IMG/VR virus record: IMGVR_UViG_3300036981_000255
Location: 1 to 64,000 of that record
From: a virus
DNA length: 64,000 nucleotides
Strand: one strand, 5' to 3'
How positions within the stretch are numbered: the stretch's first letter is position 1; each line of letters opens with the position of its first letter. Under the pieces are notes generated by a model. The model had not been told where the DNA came from. It was given only the letters and a program-made list of their open reading frames with translations, and ran no database searches. Below are positions 1,105 through 63,336 of this stretch, piece after piece. The position numbers and the translations under genes are program-made.

Positions 1105-1225
1105 TTACAAACTAGATTCATGTTGAGCCATTTGACGTTCAAAGTCATTTCTTTCGACAATCGTATCAAAATAGTCTAACGGAAATCCTTCGACATTACT
1201 AATGCAATAGGATGTGTAAACGTAG
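1105..1225 (-). pseudogene. 3' half of a 73-aa gene split by TnpB element 1
   Basis: Minus strand reads (D)YVYTSYCISNVEGFPLDYFDTIVERNDFERQMAQHESSL*; joins in frame to 2662-2762 when the element is removed; hairpin at about 1064-1097 follows the stop. Confidence 0.8.
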
Positions 1226-1256
1226 TCTTACTAACGTCAATCATTAATAATACAAT

Positions 1257-1282
1257 AACATTGAAAATCACATAAGAGTTCC
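1257..1282 (-). promoter_or_regulatory. GGAACT-N17-GTT ECF-like promoter motif, facing out of element 1
   Basis: Same motif and spacing at 5121-5146, 12672-12697, 57188-57213 and 61578-61603. Confidence 0.65.
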
Positions 1283-1305
1283 ATATAAAAAACTTTAATC
1301 TCGAC

Positions 1306-1313
1306 TATTTATA
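1306..1313 (+). promoter_or_regulatory. TATTTATA putative late promoter upstream of tnpB1
   Basis: Same octamer lies on the sense strand upstream of many virion genes. Confidence 0.6.
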
Positions 1314-1342
1314 GTTACATTACAATAAAACGAAAATCACAA

Positions 1343-2593: not shown

Positions 2594-2683
2594 CTTTATA
2601 AACTGATTTTGTGTGAGGACATTATACCATTTGGTTGATGTTTTTATATGGGATTGGTAACTCCGCATGGTCTTCGTCACAAA
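2571..2683 (+). ncRNA. Putative omegaRNA of tnpB1 (scaffold to 2663, guide from 2664 CGCATGGTCTTCGTCACAAA)
   Basis: Conserved with 40953-41046; 21-bp stem 2602-2622/2638-2658 with compensatory changes between copies; similarity ends abruptly after GGTAACTC; 5' end uncertain. Confidence 0.75.
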
Positions 2684-2762
2684 CATCACAATTGCATGTG
2701 CCACTGTTGCGATATATTGGTTTACCGATTCTGTCCAAGAACCATTCTTTTGATTTTTGCAT
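2662..2762 (-). pseudogene. 5' half of the gene split by element 1 (CxCxxC motif)
   Basis: MQKSKEWFLDRIGKPIYRNSGTCNCDVCDEDHA; start overlaps the upstream stop (TAATG at 2760-2764); now reads on into the element to a stop at 2622. Confidence 0.8.
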
Positions 2763-5120: not shown

Positions 5121-5146
5121 AACAGAAGATTTTTAAATTTAGTTCC
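5121..5146 (-). promoter_or_regulatory. GGAACT-N17-GTT promoter motif
   Basis: Intergenic, exact spacing match to four other sites. Confidence 0.65.
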
Positions 5147-12671: not shown

Positions 12672-12697
12672 AACGTCCTTTGATTTATTTTAGTTCC
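12672..12697 (-). promoter_or_regulatory. GGAACT-N17-GTT promoter motif
   Basis: Intergenic, exact spacing. Confidence 0.65.
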
Positions 12698-37514: not shown

Positions 37515-37724
37515 TTAATTTTGTGGTTGTAAACTATGTTTTGTAACTTTTTCAACGTTCAATCTAAAGCCAATTCTTCCGTCAACGATGATTCCTAACA
37601 TTGTATCATTAGTTTCTGGATTCATCATCATTGGTGTGGCTTTAAATCTATCTGTACTATTGATAAATTCTTGCAACATTGTTGTGAACTCGTTTTGGAG
37701 TTGGTTAAATTCTGTAACATTCAT
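37515..37724 (-). CDS. 69-aa hypothetical protein, duplicate B
   Basis: Near-identical to 37051-37260. Confidence 0.8.
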   Translation of the reverse strand: MNVTEFNQLQNEFTTMLQEFINSTDRFKATPMMMNPETNDTMLGIIVDGRIGFRLNVEKVTKHSLQPQN

Positions 37725-37771: not shown

Positions 37772-37850
37772 TGGAATTAAAACTCATAAATTCGTTTATG
37801 ACAAACCTCGCAAACAGTTTGTGATAAACTCGTAACCTCGTTATGATAAA
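37772..37850 (-). repeat. Three tandem 22-24 nt palindromic units (TCATAAA-CGAA-TTTATGA type)
   Basis: Inverted copy inside element 2 at 39612-39670. Confidence 0.75.
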
Positions 37851-39425: not shown

Positions 39426-39493
39426 ACAAAAAAAAGACATTCAAAGGATATTCAACCGAAAAATCCGTTGAAATTCTTTGAATGTCTTTTGAC
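39426..39493 (-). terminator. Strong hairpin plus U-run, terminator of the former tail-tube allele
   Basis: AAAAGACATTCAAAG ... CTTTGAATGTCTTTT with 8 U on the minus strand, about 45 nt after the orphan CTT TAT TAA. Confidence 0.75.
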
Positions 39494-39534: not shown

Positions 39535-39543
39535 TTAATAAAG
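39535..39543 (-). pseudogene. Orphan last codons (L-Y-stop) of the former tail-tube allele
   Basis: Joining to 41045 gives ...QYCLR|LY*, the same end as the intact tail tube gene. Confidence 0.8.
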
Positions 39544-39574
39544 TATTGTCATCGTTAATCAGTAACCATACAAT

Positions 39575-39600
39575 ATCGTTGAAAATCATATAAAAGTTCC
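39575..39600 (-). promoter_or_regulatory. GGAACT-N17-GAT variant promoter motif, facing out of element 2
   Basis: Homologous to 1257-1282. Confidence 0.5.
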
Positions 39601-39611
39601 ATAAAAAAAAC

Positions 39612-39670
39612 TTTATCGCAACCGAGTTTACGAAGGTTTATCATAAACGAATTTATGAGGTTTAATTCCA
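39612..39670 (+). repeat. Two palindromic units, a 49-nt insertion relative to element 1
   Basis: ATCGCAACCGAGTTTACGAAGGTTT + ATCATAAACGAATTTATGAGGTTT. Confidence 0.75.
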
Positions 39671-39672
39671 AC

Positions 39673-39680
39673 TATTTATA
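39673..39680 (+). promoter_or_regulatory. TATTTATA putative late promoter upstream of tnpB2
   Basis: Conserved with 1306-1313. Confidence 0.6.
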
Positions 39681-39712
39681 GTTATATTATAACAAAAACA
39701 AAACACTATCAA

Positions 39713-40975
39713 TTGCTAAGAACATCCCGACATAGTATCAGTAACACAGCAAATCAAGGCAAACTCAATGTTTTGGGGCAATTCGTTAATGATTACAAAC
39801 ATGATGTTCAATTGTTTGTTAATAAGATTGTCAAAGGTGAATTTCCGTTACAAACACTATATTCTCCAAAGGGTGTTGAAGGTGCAATCTTAAAACACAG
39901 TAAATACAAACGTGACATTTACACAAAAGCAAGTCAAATAGTTAGAGGAGAAATAGCAGCAGCCGAGGAACGCAGATACCAAGCCTACAAGAAATTGTAC
40001 AAGAAACTTATTAAGCTAAATATTCATACTGCATTCACTAATAAACGATATAGCGAACTGAACCTCAAACACATTTTCAAAACCGATTTTTTCACTATTC
40101 CAGAAATCAAAAATATCACTATTGATTTGGCAAAAGATTTGGCTGACATTCAAGACGGCAAACACTTTGACAATTTTGTAAGAATCAAACTTCCATATTT
40201 CAATGAAAAAGGCACACGAGCCTTACAAATCAAGTTACCAGTCAAAAATTACAAACATTCAAACAATTTTATCACTAAAGGTTACACAAGAAAAACGTCA
40301 ATCCAACTAAAGAAAGTCAATAACAAATTCTTCATAAACTTCTTGTGGGAAAAAAACGAAATCAAAAAATCAAAACTATCTTTCAAACCCAAAGTAAAAG
40401 CCAAATCAAAAACAGACGAACGCCCTAAACAAAGCGACATAATTCTATCCAAAACAGATAACTCAATGGGCATTGACTTAGGCTACAAAAAACTAATTGT
40501 AACGTCTAAAGGTCAAATCTTAGGAACTGATATGATAAACATTTACAAGAAATTGGTGGCTTGTAAAAGTGGAACAGCAAAATATAAACGTTTAAAAAGA
40601 GAACGAGATAACAAAATAAACTTCTATGTCAATCAAATTGACTTTGATGGTGTTGAAGTTTTGAAAATCGAAGACCTCAAAGACGTAAAAAAAGATTCAA
40701 AAGGTAAAAAATCAAAAAAGATAAATTCACTTCTCTCAAAATGGATTTATCCAAAAATTATAAGTAAAATAACGATGACATGTGAGGACAAAGGTATTTT
40801 GTTGGTAAAGGTTTTACCAGCATATACATCACAAACATGTTCATCTTGTGGTGAAATACATAGAAAGAGCCGTAAAGGTGAACTTTACAAATGTGTTTCG
40901 TGTGGTTTTGAATTGGATGCAGACTTAAATGCAGCAATCAATATCAATAACAGAGGGAGCTTGCAGTCCCCTTAA
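39713..40975 (+). CDS. tnpB: TnpB / Cas12f-like RNA-guided endonuclease (copy 2)
   Basis: GIDLG, IEDL, TCSSC..CVSC, DADLNAAINI; full-length homolog of 1343-2593; TTG start. Confidence 0.93.
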   Translation: MLRTSRHSISNTANQGKLNVLGQFVNDYKHDVQLFVNKIVKGEFPLQTLYSPKGVEGAILKHSKYKRDIYTKASQIVRGEIAAAEERRYQAYKKLYKKLIKLNIHTAFTNKRYSELNLKHIFKTDFFTIPEIKNITIDLAKDLADIQDGKHFDNFVRIKLPYFNEKGTRALQIKLPVKNYKHSNNFITKGYTRKTSIQLKKVNNKFFINFLWEKNEIKKSKLSFKPKVKAKSKTDERPKQSDIILSKTDNSMGIDLGYKKLIVTSKGQILGTDMINIYKKLVACKSGTAKYKRLKRERDNKINFYVNQIDFDGVEVLKIEDLKDVKKDSKGKKSKKINSLLSKWIYPKIISKITMTCEDKGILLVKVLPAYTSQTCSSCGEIHRKSRKGELYKCVSCGFELDADLNAAININNRGSLQSP

Positions 40976-41066
40976 CCAAAAAACTGGATTTGTGTGAAAA
41001 TGTGAAATCTTTAGGATTCTATGTTTTTATATGGATTTGGTAACTCTTAGGCAGTATTGCAGTTGG
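40953..41066 (+). ncRNA. Putative omegaRNA of tnpB2 (scaffold to 41046, guide from 41047 TTAGGCAGTATTGCAGTTGG)
   Basis: 21-bp stem 40983-41003/41021-41041; conserved with 2571-2663. Confidence 0.75.
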
Positions 41067-41116
41067 ATTGAAAATGAAATTTCTCTAACTTTAACATCAG
41101 TGTAGTCAAAAGTTCC
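41045..41116 (-). pseudogene. 72-nt remnant of a divergent tail-tube allele
   Basis: GTFDYTDVKVREISFSIQLQYCLR versus GEFSYGDAKVREISFTIQPQRCLR at 41497-41568; 17/24 aa, 49/72 nt, no gaps. Confidence 0.88.
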
Positions 41117-41120
41117 CATC

Positions 41121-41490
41121 TACCTTAAAAAAAGAAGAAGGGCGTTTCATTGTAATTTATACAGAACAAGACTTATCAAGCAAATTATTAAAACAAAATA
41201 TTGTCAAATTGTCTGGAACAGACATAACAAACAAAACACGTCATAAAACAAGTGAGAATCGTTCCAAAGAAACAAGGTTACATCGTTTTTGAAGTGGTCT
41301 ATGAAGTCAAAGAAATTCCAAAAAAGAAAGACAATAAACGTTACCTTTCAATAGACTTAGGCATCAACAATCTATCAACGTTATCAAAGCACAAATCATC
41401 AACGGTAAACCACTAAAATCAATAAACCAAATTTCCAATAAACAAGTATCAAAACTGAAATCAATTATCACAACGATAAATAAAAAACTA
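41121..41490 (+). pseudogene. tnpB: Frameshifted fragment of a different TnpB family
   Basis: Across frames: EGRFIVIYTEQ...KLSGT / IKQVRIVPK..YIVFEVVYE...YLSIDLGINNL / IINGKPLKSINQ..NK. Confidence 0.8.
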
Positions 41491-41979
41491 GTAAAGTCTT
41501 AGGCAACGTTGTGGTTGTATAGTAAATGAAATTTCACGGACTTTTGCATCACCATAACTAAATTCACCAAAATCTAATTCACCTGTTACAATGGCATTTT
41601 CAATCAACCATTTAGATACTGCTACACCAGTTGGGTCTAATAGTTCAAGTTCAAGATTTTTTGCGCATCCTATATTGTATCCCATACGACCTGTGGCAGA
41701 TTCAGCGTGAAGACGTACCCACTCCATCAATGCTTCACCTTGAGAGGGTGCAACAAAATCTCTAACTTTTATTGCCATTTCTTTCCACTCATACGAGCCA
41801 TTCACGTATGTTTTAGTATTTAAAAAAGCAATATCAATTTTTTGCAAGGACATTTTCGGTGAACCGCAAGATATTAATGACCATGTTTGAATACCAACAT
41901 CTGATGGAAAACGTAAAATCCAACGATTTGTTAGCATAATTTCATATTGCAAAGGACTTTTTAATAGTAAATCCGCCAT
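41488..41979 (-). CDS. Tail tube protein (gp19-like)
   Basis: NRWILRFP...WKEMAIKVRD...LMEWVR...LELLDPTGVAVSKW...QPQRC; near the sheath gene. Confidence 0.88.
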   Translation of the reverse strand: MADLLLKSPLQYEIMLTNRWILRFPSDVGIQTWSLISCGSPKMSLQKIDIAFLNTKTYVNGSYEWKEMAIKVRDFVAPSQGEALMEWVRLHAESATGRMGYNIGCAKNLELELLDPTGVAVSKWLIENAIVTGELDFGEFSYGDAKVREISFTIQPQRCLRLY

Positions 41980-56852: not shown

Positions 56853-57133
56853 AATTGTTTGTTTATTTCATTATATAAAGCTGCTTTTTCTTTGACTTTC
56901 GAAATTTCTTCTATTTCAAACTCATCTGACCCTCCAAATAATGGGTATTTTGTATATAAAATCTTCCCTACTCCGTCTACTACGAATTGGATACTCCCAA
57001 GACACATCCCAACAGTGAAACTCTTAACAGTTTTAAATACGTCATAGATTTTCCCTTGTTTATCATAAGCAATTAAATCTTCACATTTTTCAATGTCTTG
57101 TAATTGACCGTTGATTTCTACTTGTTTTTTCAC
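56849..57133 (-). CDS. Hypothetical protein
   Basis: 94-aa ORF after a GGAACT cassette. Confidence 0.65.
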   Translation of the reverse strand: MKKQVEINGQLQDIEKCEDLIAYDKQGKIYDVFKTVKSFTVGMCLGSIQFVVDGVGKILYTKYPLFGGSDEFEIEEISKVKEKAALYNEINKQL

Positions 57134-57187
57134 TTTATTAAAATTTAATGATTAAAAAATAAACCTTTCATAAGATTCTAAAACTAG

Positions 57188-57213
57188 AACCAAAAGATTT
57201 TCAATAAAGTTCC
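57188..57213 (-). promoter_or_regulatory. GGAACT-N17-GTT promoter motif
   Basis: Part of a cassette shared with 61545-61606. Confidence 0.7.
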
Positions 57214-60532: not shown

Positions 60533-61519
60533 TTATACCCATAAGATTCGTGTATGGGTGTCTTTTGAAATTTTTTCTTCTGTTAATTTTCCATTTTTTG
60601 AAATAGTTATTGTTTGAAGTTGCATATTATCAGAACACTCTAAATGTGTTAATTCAAGGTTGTTTGATAAATCAAGGTTTTCTAAAGAATTTTTACAACA
60701 TACTAAAAACCTAAGTTTCAAATTTTTCGTTAAATCTAAAGATTTTAATTTATTTTCATTACAACATAACACTTCGAGTTCAAGGTTATTCAAAGTGTTT
60801 AACTTTTTTAAAGAATTATAATTAACGCTTAGTTTGATTAGGTTTGTATTTTCACTTAAATCAATATCTGTTAAGAAATTGGAATTAACATCTAATGAAT
60901 ATAAAATTTTATTTTTCGACACATCAAGAGATTCTAATTGATTGTTAGTGCAACACAATATTTCCAAGTTAACATTATTAGAAACATTGATTTCTTCTAA
61001 TAAATTATTAGAACAAGATAACCACGTTAAGTTTAAACTCCCCTCCACATTGATTCTTTTTAATCTGTTATGTGAACAGAATATTTTTTTAAGATTAACT
61101 AACAAATGGAAATTTTCTGGAAAAGACTTTAAGTATTTATATGAAAAATCCAATTCTTTGATACTGGTAATCCAATCAACTTGTTCTTGTAAATCCCAAG
61201 ATTTTATGTTAATTCCAATTGTATCAAATAATTCGATAATGTCTTGGTAATCTGATTGTTTTTTATCTGTTTTTTCCGAAATTAACTTTTTTATAAATGA
61301 GGGTTGAGTTAAGTTGGAATTTTTTGAAACATAAATTATTTCGTAATCTTTTTCTGAAATAAAAGTGGACATTCCAATATTTTCACAAACAGTAAATTTA
61401 CCATCTTCCATAAAACCTTGATATGGTAAATTTTCAAAGAAAACCTTCCCTTTTTTAAAGTTGTTGGAAAAATTGACTACATTGTTTAATAAAATTATTC
61501 CTTTTACTAATTTATTCAT
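60533..61519 (-). CDS. Leucine-rich repeat protein
   Basis: 21-aa repeats LxxLxCxxNxLxxLDLSxN. Confidence 0.88.
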   Translation of the reverse strand: MNKLVKGIILLNNVVNFSNNFKKGKVFFENLPYQGFMEDGKFTVCENIGMSTFISEKDYEIIYVSKNSNLTQPSFIKKLISEKTDKKQSDYQDIIELFDTIGINIKSWDLQEQVDWITSIKELDFSYKYLKSFPENFHLLVNLKKIFCSHNRLKRINVEGSLNLTWLSCSNNLLEEINVSNNVNLEILCCTNNQLESLDVSKNKILYSLDVNSNFLTDIDLSENTNLIKLSVNYNSLKKLNTLNNLELEVLCCNENKLKSLDLTKNLKLRFLVCCKNSLENLDLSNNLELTHLECSDNMQLQTITISKNGKLTEEKISKDTHTRILWV

Positions 61520-61577
61520 TATTTTAGTTGTTTTTTATTGTTAAAAATTAAACATTTCATAAGATTCTACAACTTTA

Positions 61578-61603
61578 AACCATTAGATTTCAAATTAAGT
61601 TCC
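61578..61603 (-). promoter_or_regulatory. GGAACT-N17-GTT promoter motif
   Basis: Upstream of the LRR gene. Confidence 0.7.
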
Positions 61604-62552: not shown

Positions 62553-62595
62553 TTGTTATAAATATTTGTTCCAATTGTTTTTGTTTGTGTAAAAA

Positions 62596-63336
62596 TCACA
62601 AATCATTTTTATAATCTTGATTGATTTTTTCACGTTTTCTATTGAAATACAATGCTTTGAACTTCTTTAGATTTTCTCGAATGTCTTTAGTATTTAAACC
62701 TGTGACACATCTTAGGCATTCCAAGACTTGGTTTTTGTTGTAATTTTTTCCACCGTCATCAAAGACAGATTCCCAATTTTCCATCAGTTCTATGATTGCA
62801 TAACCGAGAAGTTCTTCTGAATCGCTCAAATATCCTGTGTCATCGTTTGTTGCCAAAGTTTCTTTGATAATGTCAATGTACTGGTAGAAGAAATCTCTCA
62901 TGGCATTCGTTTCAGTTTCAATAGTGTATGAATATTTTTCATCTTCTATCAAAACGTCCACTTTACTTTCGTAAGATGTTTGCCTTATTTTTCTTTGGAC
63001 TTCTTTTTGTCTTCTGCCGATTAAATCATTTTTGATGATTGTACCATAATAAGAATATGCCTTTGCGCCATTCGATGGGTCAAACAAATCTATTTTGGTG
63101 TGCAAGAAACTTAACGTTTCAAACATCAAATCGTCAAACGTTATTTCTTCACTCCACAATTTGTATCTGTTAATAATACTTTCAACCATTTTGAATAGTG
63201 GTTGCGCAAGATATTTTTCATAAATTTCATTGCGTACCACATCATCGTCACTGTTGAGGTATTGAATAACAGCTTCTTCTTGCGGAGTGTCAAAATATCG
63301 TACTTGGGTTCGAGGTCTCCCTCTTGGTTTTTTCAT
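62596..63336 (-). CDS. Phage sigma-factor-like protein (gp55-like candidate)
   Basis: Region-2-like DDLMFETLSFL..KIDLFDPSNGAKAYSYYGTIIKN. Confidence 0.65.
   Translation of the reverse strand: MKKPRGRPRTQVRYFDTPQEEAVIQYLNSDDDVVRNEIYEKYLAQPLFKMVESIINRYKLWSEEITFDDLMFETLSFLHTKIDLFDPSNGAKAYSYYGTIIKNDLIGRRQKEVQRKIRQTSYESKVDVLIEDEKYSYTIETETNAMRDFFYQYIDIIKETLATNDDTGYLSDSEELLGYAIIELMENWESVFDDGGKNYNKNQVLECLRCVTGLNTKDIRENLKKFKALYFNRKREKINQDYKNDL

Follow-up and report, generated by a model that had tools for sequence, protein, structure and literature searches.

Two TnpB elements of a large phage carry, back to back at their left ends, motifs that match the phage's own putative promoter types

A large phage carries two related TnpB elements, el1 and el2, which we read, with moderate confidence, as old, non-autonomous copies whose left end is a promoter cassette written in the phage's own signals. 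That the elements are adapted to the phage, and bear promoter types of the phage, is supported by the sequence comparisons set out below; that the boxes concerned are active promoters is what we infer from them. The left end, 115–169 nt long, would act as a cassette in the transcription signals of this phage: an inward-facing TATTTATA box would drive tnpB and the guide RNA at its 3' end on the schedule of the virion genes, and an outward-facing GGAACT-N17-GTT, ~25–55 nt from the tip and bipartite in the style of ECF-sigma promoters, would fire toward the interrupted operon. The outward promoter may have been retained for reducing polarity after antisense insertion into an operon.

The window—by which we mean the whole stretch of DNA analysed—comprises the opening 64 kb of an IMG/VR virus record of 98,616 bp, a fragment of a large myovirus with a GC content of 32% and a CheckV completeness of 36%. 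Encoded in it are a tail sheath, a portal, a ribonucleotide reductase, a helicase-primase and a tail tube protein. In a crude longest-ORF gene call the minus strand holds 111 of 130 genes; two exceptions to this bias, the plus-strand ORFs at 1343–2593 and 39713–40975, both encode TnpB.

The elements el1 (1228–2663) and el2 (39544–41044), both on the plus strand, are recognizable by homology with one another and by what their removal restores, an open frame in the case of el1 and the end of a tail tube gene in the case of el2. The tnpB gene of el1 (1343–2593; PF07282, 1.1e-19) specifies 416 aa and that of el2 (39713–40975; PF07282, 2.9e-20) specifies 420 aa; both start with a conserved TTG, and the two proteins are 68% identical in aa sequence. 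Because the RuvC residues D251, E316 and D400, and the four zinc cysteines, C372, C375, C390 and C393, are invariant in an alignment of 35 homologues, both nucleases look intact. At the DNA level, homology between the elements runs from ~1233 to 2663 in the one and from ~39551 to 41044 in the other, beginning ~5–8 nt from the tips, and since the two copies share ancestry in this way they represent a single evolutionary event. The left end of el1, from its tip to the TTG (1228–1342, plus strand), is non-coding and holds both motifs. The right end (2594–2663, plus strand), which is conserved with el2 up to GGTAAC(TC), is presumed to be the end of the omega-RNA scaffold; a comparison of the element ends with Rfam matched no family, and detected no intron.

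The sequence-only reading had both elements inserted antisense to the genes they interrupt, and the flanks bear this out, for the minus-strand frames rejoin at both sites. When el1 is excised in silico, 33 N-terminal codons (2762..2664, with an ATG at 2762) join in frame with 40 C-terminal codons and a stop (1227..1105) to give an open frame of 73 codons, and TC is present at both junctions (1226–1227 and 2662–2663). No homologue of the C-terminal half of this ORF was detectable, and so it is the open frame that identifies the gene split by el1. When el2 is excised, ...QYCLR (41119..41045) joins LY-stop (39543..39535), and the joined flanks then end like the resident tail tube gene (41488–41979; phrog_4542, 1.5e-13), which finishes ...QRCLRLY-stop. 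Since removal of the elements restores these frames, and since homology reaches almost to the tips, both motifs sit within the mobile unit. The flank at the right end of el2 is a 25-codon fragment of a second tail-tube allele (41045–41119, minus strand). Between it and the stop of the resident tube gene lies the frameshifted N-terminal remnant of a different TnpB (41120–41487, plus strand), whose position beside the second allele suggests that the 3' end of the tube gene is a repeated site of landing or exchange. Antisense insertion does not hold throughout the clade: of the cases in a crude count, 12 were antisense, 15 sense and 13 mixed. No serine recombinase (Resolvase domain) is encoded in the 98.6 kb, whereas a Resolvase-domain, IS607-type TnpA stands directly upstream of tnpB in two relatives (L091 and L095), and we therefore classify el1 and el2 as non-autonomous members of an IS607-related clade.

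Both motifs are found where the sequence-only reading had placed them. On the sense strand, TATTTATA occupies 1306–1313 in el1, 29 nt before the TTG at 1343, and 39673–39680 in el2, 32 nt before the TTG at 39713; its context in el1, cTATTTATAg, is the same as at two native sites, 52296 and 88051. On the minus strand, facing out, el1 has GGAACT-N17-GTT at 1257–1282, with a predicted start at ~1250, and el2 has GGAACT-N17-GAT at 39575–39600, with a predicted start at ~39568. The –10 of el2 is the deviating one, GTT being present at the other six GGAACT-N17 sites of the contig. These –35 and –10 boxes are situated ~30–57 nt from the element tips, so that transcripts starting near 1250 and 39568 would exit the element after ~22–24 nt. 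GGAACT-N17-GWT occurs six times in the window, always on the minus strand, against an expectation of 0.82 (none of 100 shuffles reaches six), and seven times, again always on the minus strand, in the whole contig. TATTTATA occurs 19 times in the window against 6.8 expected, and here too none of 100 shuffles reaches the observed number. Dinucleotide shuffles of the two left ends, evaluated post hoc, give a probability of ~0.014 for the sense TATTTATA and of 0.0002–0.002 for the outward GGAACT-N17-GWT. Conservation singles out neither box, because the whole block is ~85% conserved between el1 and el2. The left-end TATTTATA was also considered as DNA of the target site, and this was rejected because its distance inward from the tip is 78 nt in el1 and 129 nt in el2.

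That these motifs are the phage's own upstream signals, as had been proposed, is upheld by their distribution elsewhere in the genome. When TnpB neighbourhoods are set aside, no specific octamer ranks above TATTTATA in the 70 nt before called genes; 11 of its 28 genome copies fall in such windows, a 10-fold enrichment. The genes with a copy 4–52 nt upstream are those of the tail sheath, of a weakly tube-like protein and of about ten products of unknown function; the ribonucleotide reductase and helicase genes have none before them. T4-type late promoters, which depend on the factor gp55, have TATAAATA on the sense strand at about –10. The sense box of the elements is not of this identity: it is TATTTATA, the reverse complement of TATAAATA, and upstream windows of this phage contain 11 of the former versus four of the latter. 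TATTTATA is probably a single-element promoter of the late class, and, with the sheath gene and several genes of unknown function carrying it and the reductase and helicase genes not, late synthesis of TnpB, another part of the original proposal, is a reasonable supposition.

Outside the elements, GGAACT-N17-GTT is found at four intergenic sites, 23–79 nt before minus-strand genes, and at a fifth site (79848) inside a gene. The intergenic sites, all on the minus strand, are 5121–5146, which heads the string of genes that ends in the gene split by el1; 12672–12697; 57188–57213; and 61578–61603, which precedes the gene for an LRR protein. Promoters of the ECF-sigma class have a GGAAC-type –35, a spacer of 16–18 nt and a GTT- or CGT-type –10, and GGAACT-N17-GTT fits this pattern; as a promoter class in this phage, defined by just four native intergenic sites, it is putative. 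What the outward site in the left end has in common with the four native sites is the –35 box and the –10 box, and neither spacer nor flanks, which fits shared function over shared descent. The notion that the native sites are solo left ends was discarded, there being no homology past the two boxes. Intergenic use of this class is, by the sequences compared, specific to this phage: GGAACT-N17-G(T/A)T is absent from five other phages checked, and with the relaxed pattern GGAAC-N17-19-GTT five of ten sites are intergenic here versus 2, 0, 0, 0 and 0 in five other TnpB-bearing contigs. Two of the native regions, 57133–57213 and 61519–61603, resemble one another for a further ~60 nt past the GGAACT motif, including TAGAATCTTATGAAA, which suggests a duplicated leader or a small conserved element.

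One of the two motif classes may be read by the protein encoded at 62596–63336 (minus strand). Its profile matches are below cut-off (PF04542, 22 bits; the ECF profile TIGR02937, 20.8 bits versus a cut-off of 42.9), and it belongs to a large family, with 1,089 relatives in metagenomes, whose own profile matches SigA with an E of 5.5e-4 and gp55, weakly, with an E of 0.4. The AlphaFold model has a pLDDT of 90, and every one of the Foldseek PDB matches listed is a sigma factor or a complex of RNA polymerase with sigma. Judged by this model, the protein is a divergent member of the sigma-70 family with sigma-2 and C-terminal sigma-4-like parts, and the latter would go well with a promoter in two parts, GGAACT-N17-GTT for instance. 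The available 36% of the genome yielded no gp55-like factor. Immediately downstream of the sigma gene is a gene that has GGAAC and TATTTATA in tandem before it (62557–62572).

If the left ends are written in the language of the resident phage, then relatives of el1 and el2 in other phages ought to use other words, and this is largely what is seen. Ten further phage contigs with this TnpB clade were compared with the present one (G000). Upstream windows in G002 contain ten copies of TATAAATA and one of TATTTATA, and those in G004 contain 14 and none, and in these two contigs a sense TATAAATA stands 5–7 nt before tnpB, or before the first small ORF of the element, in six copies of six. G001 uses TATAAATAG, which is present in 2/3 of its elements, and G000 has TATTTATA in both of its own; G003 and G005 use TATTTATA, and their elements show only a near match, TATATTTATT. 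Among the contigs compared, we saw no left-end motif crossed with the dialect of another phage. The contigs also fall into groups: G000, G003 and G005 combine TATTTATA with A-rich leaders and no Shine-Dalgarno sequence, and G001, G002 and G004 combine TATAAATA with GGAG-type ribosome sites. As noted, the two octamers are each other's reverse complements.

A second lineage appears, by sequence, to have the same back-to-back layout as el1 and el2, in other words. Three copies in unrelated contexts, two in G002 (a and c) and one in G004 (x), have in common an outward tttACTTGACAttt, as the –35, and a sense TATAAATA; homology between G002c and G004x spans the outward –10, TATATT, as well, and stops 2–3 nt past it. 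ACTTGACA is an early-type upstream motif of that second-lineage phage, six of its ten copies lying upstream of genes, and in each of the three cases the next gene that the outward motif faces is a co-directional gene of the host phage. The region before tnpB varies in other respects, too. An ORF of 65–70 aa takes the place of TnpA in L098 (2292–2504) and G002 (72321–72527); it is similar to the N-terminal, HTH part of TnpA proteins in the clade and has no Pfam hit. L092 (2352–2501), L106 (2347–2508) and L005 (1445–1642) have instead of TnpA, upstream of tnpB, an Arc/RHH-like ORF of 49–65 aa. A phage-type box precedes the small ORF in the copies checked, namely G002 72321, L106 and L005. In the G001 lineage (L097, L103, L141 and L153), an outward Shine-Dalgarno sequence and an ATG micro-ORF (MKNSLKHQ...) are conserved ~60–140 nt upstream of tnpB.

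It had been suggested that the outward promoter restores transcription of genes downstream of the insertion. This we cannot support at the two sites in hand, for at each of them a strong terminator precedes the next gene. On the minus strand, RNA from the outward site of el1 would cover what is left of the split gene, 40 codons, before running into an intrinsic terminator, a hairpin with a U-run (973–1028; –23.6 kcal/mol, z –4.0); from that of el2, it would run through three codons and then into another (39428–39490; –29.7 kcal/mol, z –5.2). Both hairpins came from direct folding, a simple terminator scan having missed them on account of its limits on loop and GC. The terminators are reached within ~80–280 nt of the outward sites, and the gene that comes after the one at el1 has a TATTTATA of its own at 952–959. 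Neither at el1 nor at el2, then, is there a co-directional gene that can be reached without an intervening terminator. Because each insertion has only the terminator of its operon beyond it, the outward promoter can do little here. At such operon ends polarity hardly matters, and these are the insertions that selection for survival in a dense lytic genome would favour. A role in downstream transcription is possible as a general property of the element, to go by G002 and G004, or by way of read-through of the terminators. Re-expression of the split gene from an outward ATG at ~1244, within the left end of el1, was rejected, since that ATG is out of frame.

How such a left end might come about is hinted at by its own sequence. 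In el2, a patch of ~57 nt that is absent from el1 (39612–39668, plus strand) is ~85% identical overall, and 94.6% identical over 37 nt, to native intergenic DNA 1.8 kb away (37772–37830), upstream of the gene at 37515–37724. The patch contains a perfect palindrome, GTTTATCATAAAC (39636), with its only other intergenic near-copies at 37794 and 37817, and has the look of a captured operator. The left end of G002 copy a, similarly, agrees with a native early/late divergent junction (1334–1365) at ~30 of 33 positions, compared by eye, and is closer to that junction than to copy c. These matches indicate that left ends exchange sequence with resident regulatory DNA, and this cuts two ways. It favours an adaptor that is rewritten by recombination, an idea we advance tentatively: the left end of phage IS607-type TnpB elements might be an exchangeable 'promoter adaptor' that is recombined to suit the resident phage, with a late box inward, an early or middle box outward, and antisense insertions tolerated. 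It also keeps alive a different explanation, one that we think unlikely, according to which the left end was rebuilt from phage regulatory DNA by promoter capture, and only the inward box matters, the outward box being a passenger from a captured control region, either bidirectional or neighbouring. The patch with its operator-like palindrome and the near-identity of the G002a left end to a native junction are what promoter capture would produce, and a passenger box would sit well with the fact that outward transcripts in this phage would reach only a terminator. But the 98.6 kb contain no native junction in which GGAACT and TATTTATA stand back to back from which the pair could have been taken; the outward box has no homology to native sites past its two hexamers; and in G002 and G004 an outward promoter has been kept in three contexts, with a co-directional gene after each.

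The outward match might, alternatively, be a chance occurrence in AT-rich DNA, the conserved block at 1257–1291 being in truth bound by IS607 TnpA, which is absent here, or else promoting tnpB in the sense direction. We regard this as improbable. An 11-nt inverted repeat joins the two ends of el1 (1281–1291 and 2641–2651), the left-end block of el1 can also be read as a sense TTGAAA-N17-TATAAA, the –10 of el2 is off-consensus, and the pattern was found post hoc; given the sense reading and the overlap of the repeat with the outward –35, the conserved block could serve tnpB expression or transposase binding instead. That overlap amounts to just 2 nt, however, and the probability of a chance match is the 0.0002–0.002 per left end given above. 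Four of the five copies outside TnpB elements are intergenic and co-oriented with genes, the intergenic use is phage-specific, and a parallel outward promoter occurs in another lineage. The repeat is of interest in its own right: as CCATATAAAAA / TTTTTATATGG, of 11–12 nt (1281–1291 versus 2641–2651; 41024–41035), it links left and right ends, and may be a site for recombinase binding or for the pairing of ends. There is, lastly, the thought that the outward motif is a relic, a leftward promoter of a divergent tnpA/arc pair that has outlived the leftward gene it once served. Divergent promoter pairs have been described for the IS605 family (bioRxiv 10.64898/2026.09.24.754181), but the accessory ORFs of the present clade, whether for TnpA, HTH-only or small and Arc-like, are all upstream of, and co-directional with, tnpB, and the outward motif matches this phage's own class; we give the relic very little credence. 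The reading we prefer continues to be that of an old TnpB element with a promoter cassette in the phage's own signals.

That the element is adapted to phages, rather than being a host IS in passing, also agrees with where its relatives live. Full-length relatives, 33–45% identical, occur at no fewer than 45 loci (at least this many) in IMG/VR, often two to four per contig, in contigs of 50–430 kb; among one genome each of 185,579 prokaryote species there are only four or five full-length matches, the best of them at 36%. One of these prokaryote-set matches (L015) has a left end in common with a viral contig of 373 kb. P0002 (83%) and P0004 (65%), the nearest relatives of all, are on short metagenome contigs, and a run assembly of 37,956 bp encodes exactly the TnpB of el2. 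When TnpB, the tube protein and the left neighbour of 200 aa were each scanned singly against IMG/VR, no close kin appeared; a metagenome scan produced relatives at 41% identity or less, the left-end DNA pattern had no match in IMG/VR, and INPHARED phages gave only weak matches at the level of TnpB. The clade, then, is mainly a viral one, of large phages, with left ends in the resident dialect.

TnpB elements are usually studied as passengers of bacterial IS, with weak, generic promoters. If a whole clade lives in large phages and carries phage-matched cassettes, then TnpB would act here like a free-standing homing endonuclease, timed to the presence of many genome copies and of co-infecting rivals. 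The promoter adaptor, if true, would explain how a lineage of RNA-guided transposons came to specialize on dense lytic phages, behaving as homing endonucleases do. There would be practical returns as well: a direct handle on competition between phages; elements that 'report' the promoter classes, unknown as yet, of the phages they inhabit, and so make them readable; and a source of compact nuclease–promoter modules that work in infected cells.

Several known systems resemble this one in part. Bacterial IS such as IS1, IS2, IS3, IS10 (pOUT) and ISAba1 have outward promoters in their terminal ~60 bp that point into flanking genes; these consist of sigma-70 boxes of the host, and activation of neighbouring genes is what they are best known for. 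In el1 and el2 the box is likewise near the tip and likewise faces out, but it is of a phage-specific, ECF-like class, and at both sites it faces a terminator. Our full-text literature searches found no description of phage-matched TnpB promoter cassettes.

Close counterparts are the IS607 and IS200–IS605 TnpB–omegaRNA elements, including ISDra2 and IS608 (PMC8612924, PMC10055086), which el1 and el2 resemble in the RuvC D-E-D and the zinc finger, and in a conserved 3' right end that abuts the flank, precise ends and the lack of long terminal repeats. They differ from these in residing in a large phage of lytic type, and in having resident promoter words at the left end instead of a generic weak promoter. 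Clade relatives carry the serine recombinase typical of the IS607 family; el1 and el2 themselves are without TnpA. Some IS605 elements have divergent promoters under the control of Arc, the leftward one serving tnpA/arc inside the element (bioRxiv 10.64898/2026.09.24.754181). The back-to-back arrangement near tnpB is similar, but the leftward motif of el1 and el2 points out of the element, and neither has an Arc gene, the small Arc-like ORFs being in the relatives L092, L106 and L005. IS607 elements with group I introns limit harm to the interrupted gene in another way (bioRxiv 10.1101/2023.11.20.567912); splicing requires the sense orientation, and el1 and el2 are antisense, with no intron detected in them. 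The free-standing homing endonuclease genes of T-even phages, seg and mob, are, as summarized where PMC13565253 cites Edgell et al. 2010, situated between or inside phage genes, are expressed from promoters of phage type, and pass from one co-infecting phage to another through cleavage and repair. Measured against that summary, el1 and el2 have a nuclease, TnpB, that is guided by RNA, they have the ends of a transposon, and their promoter cassette travels along with them.
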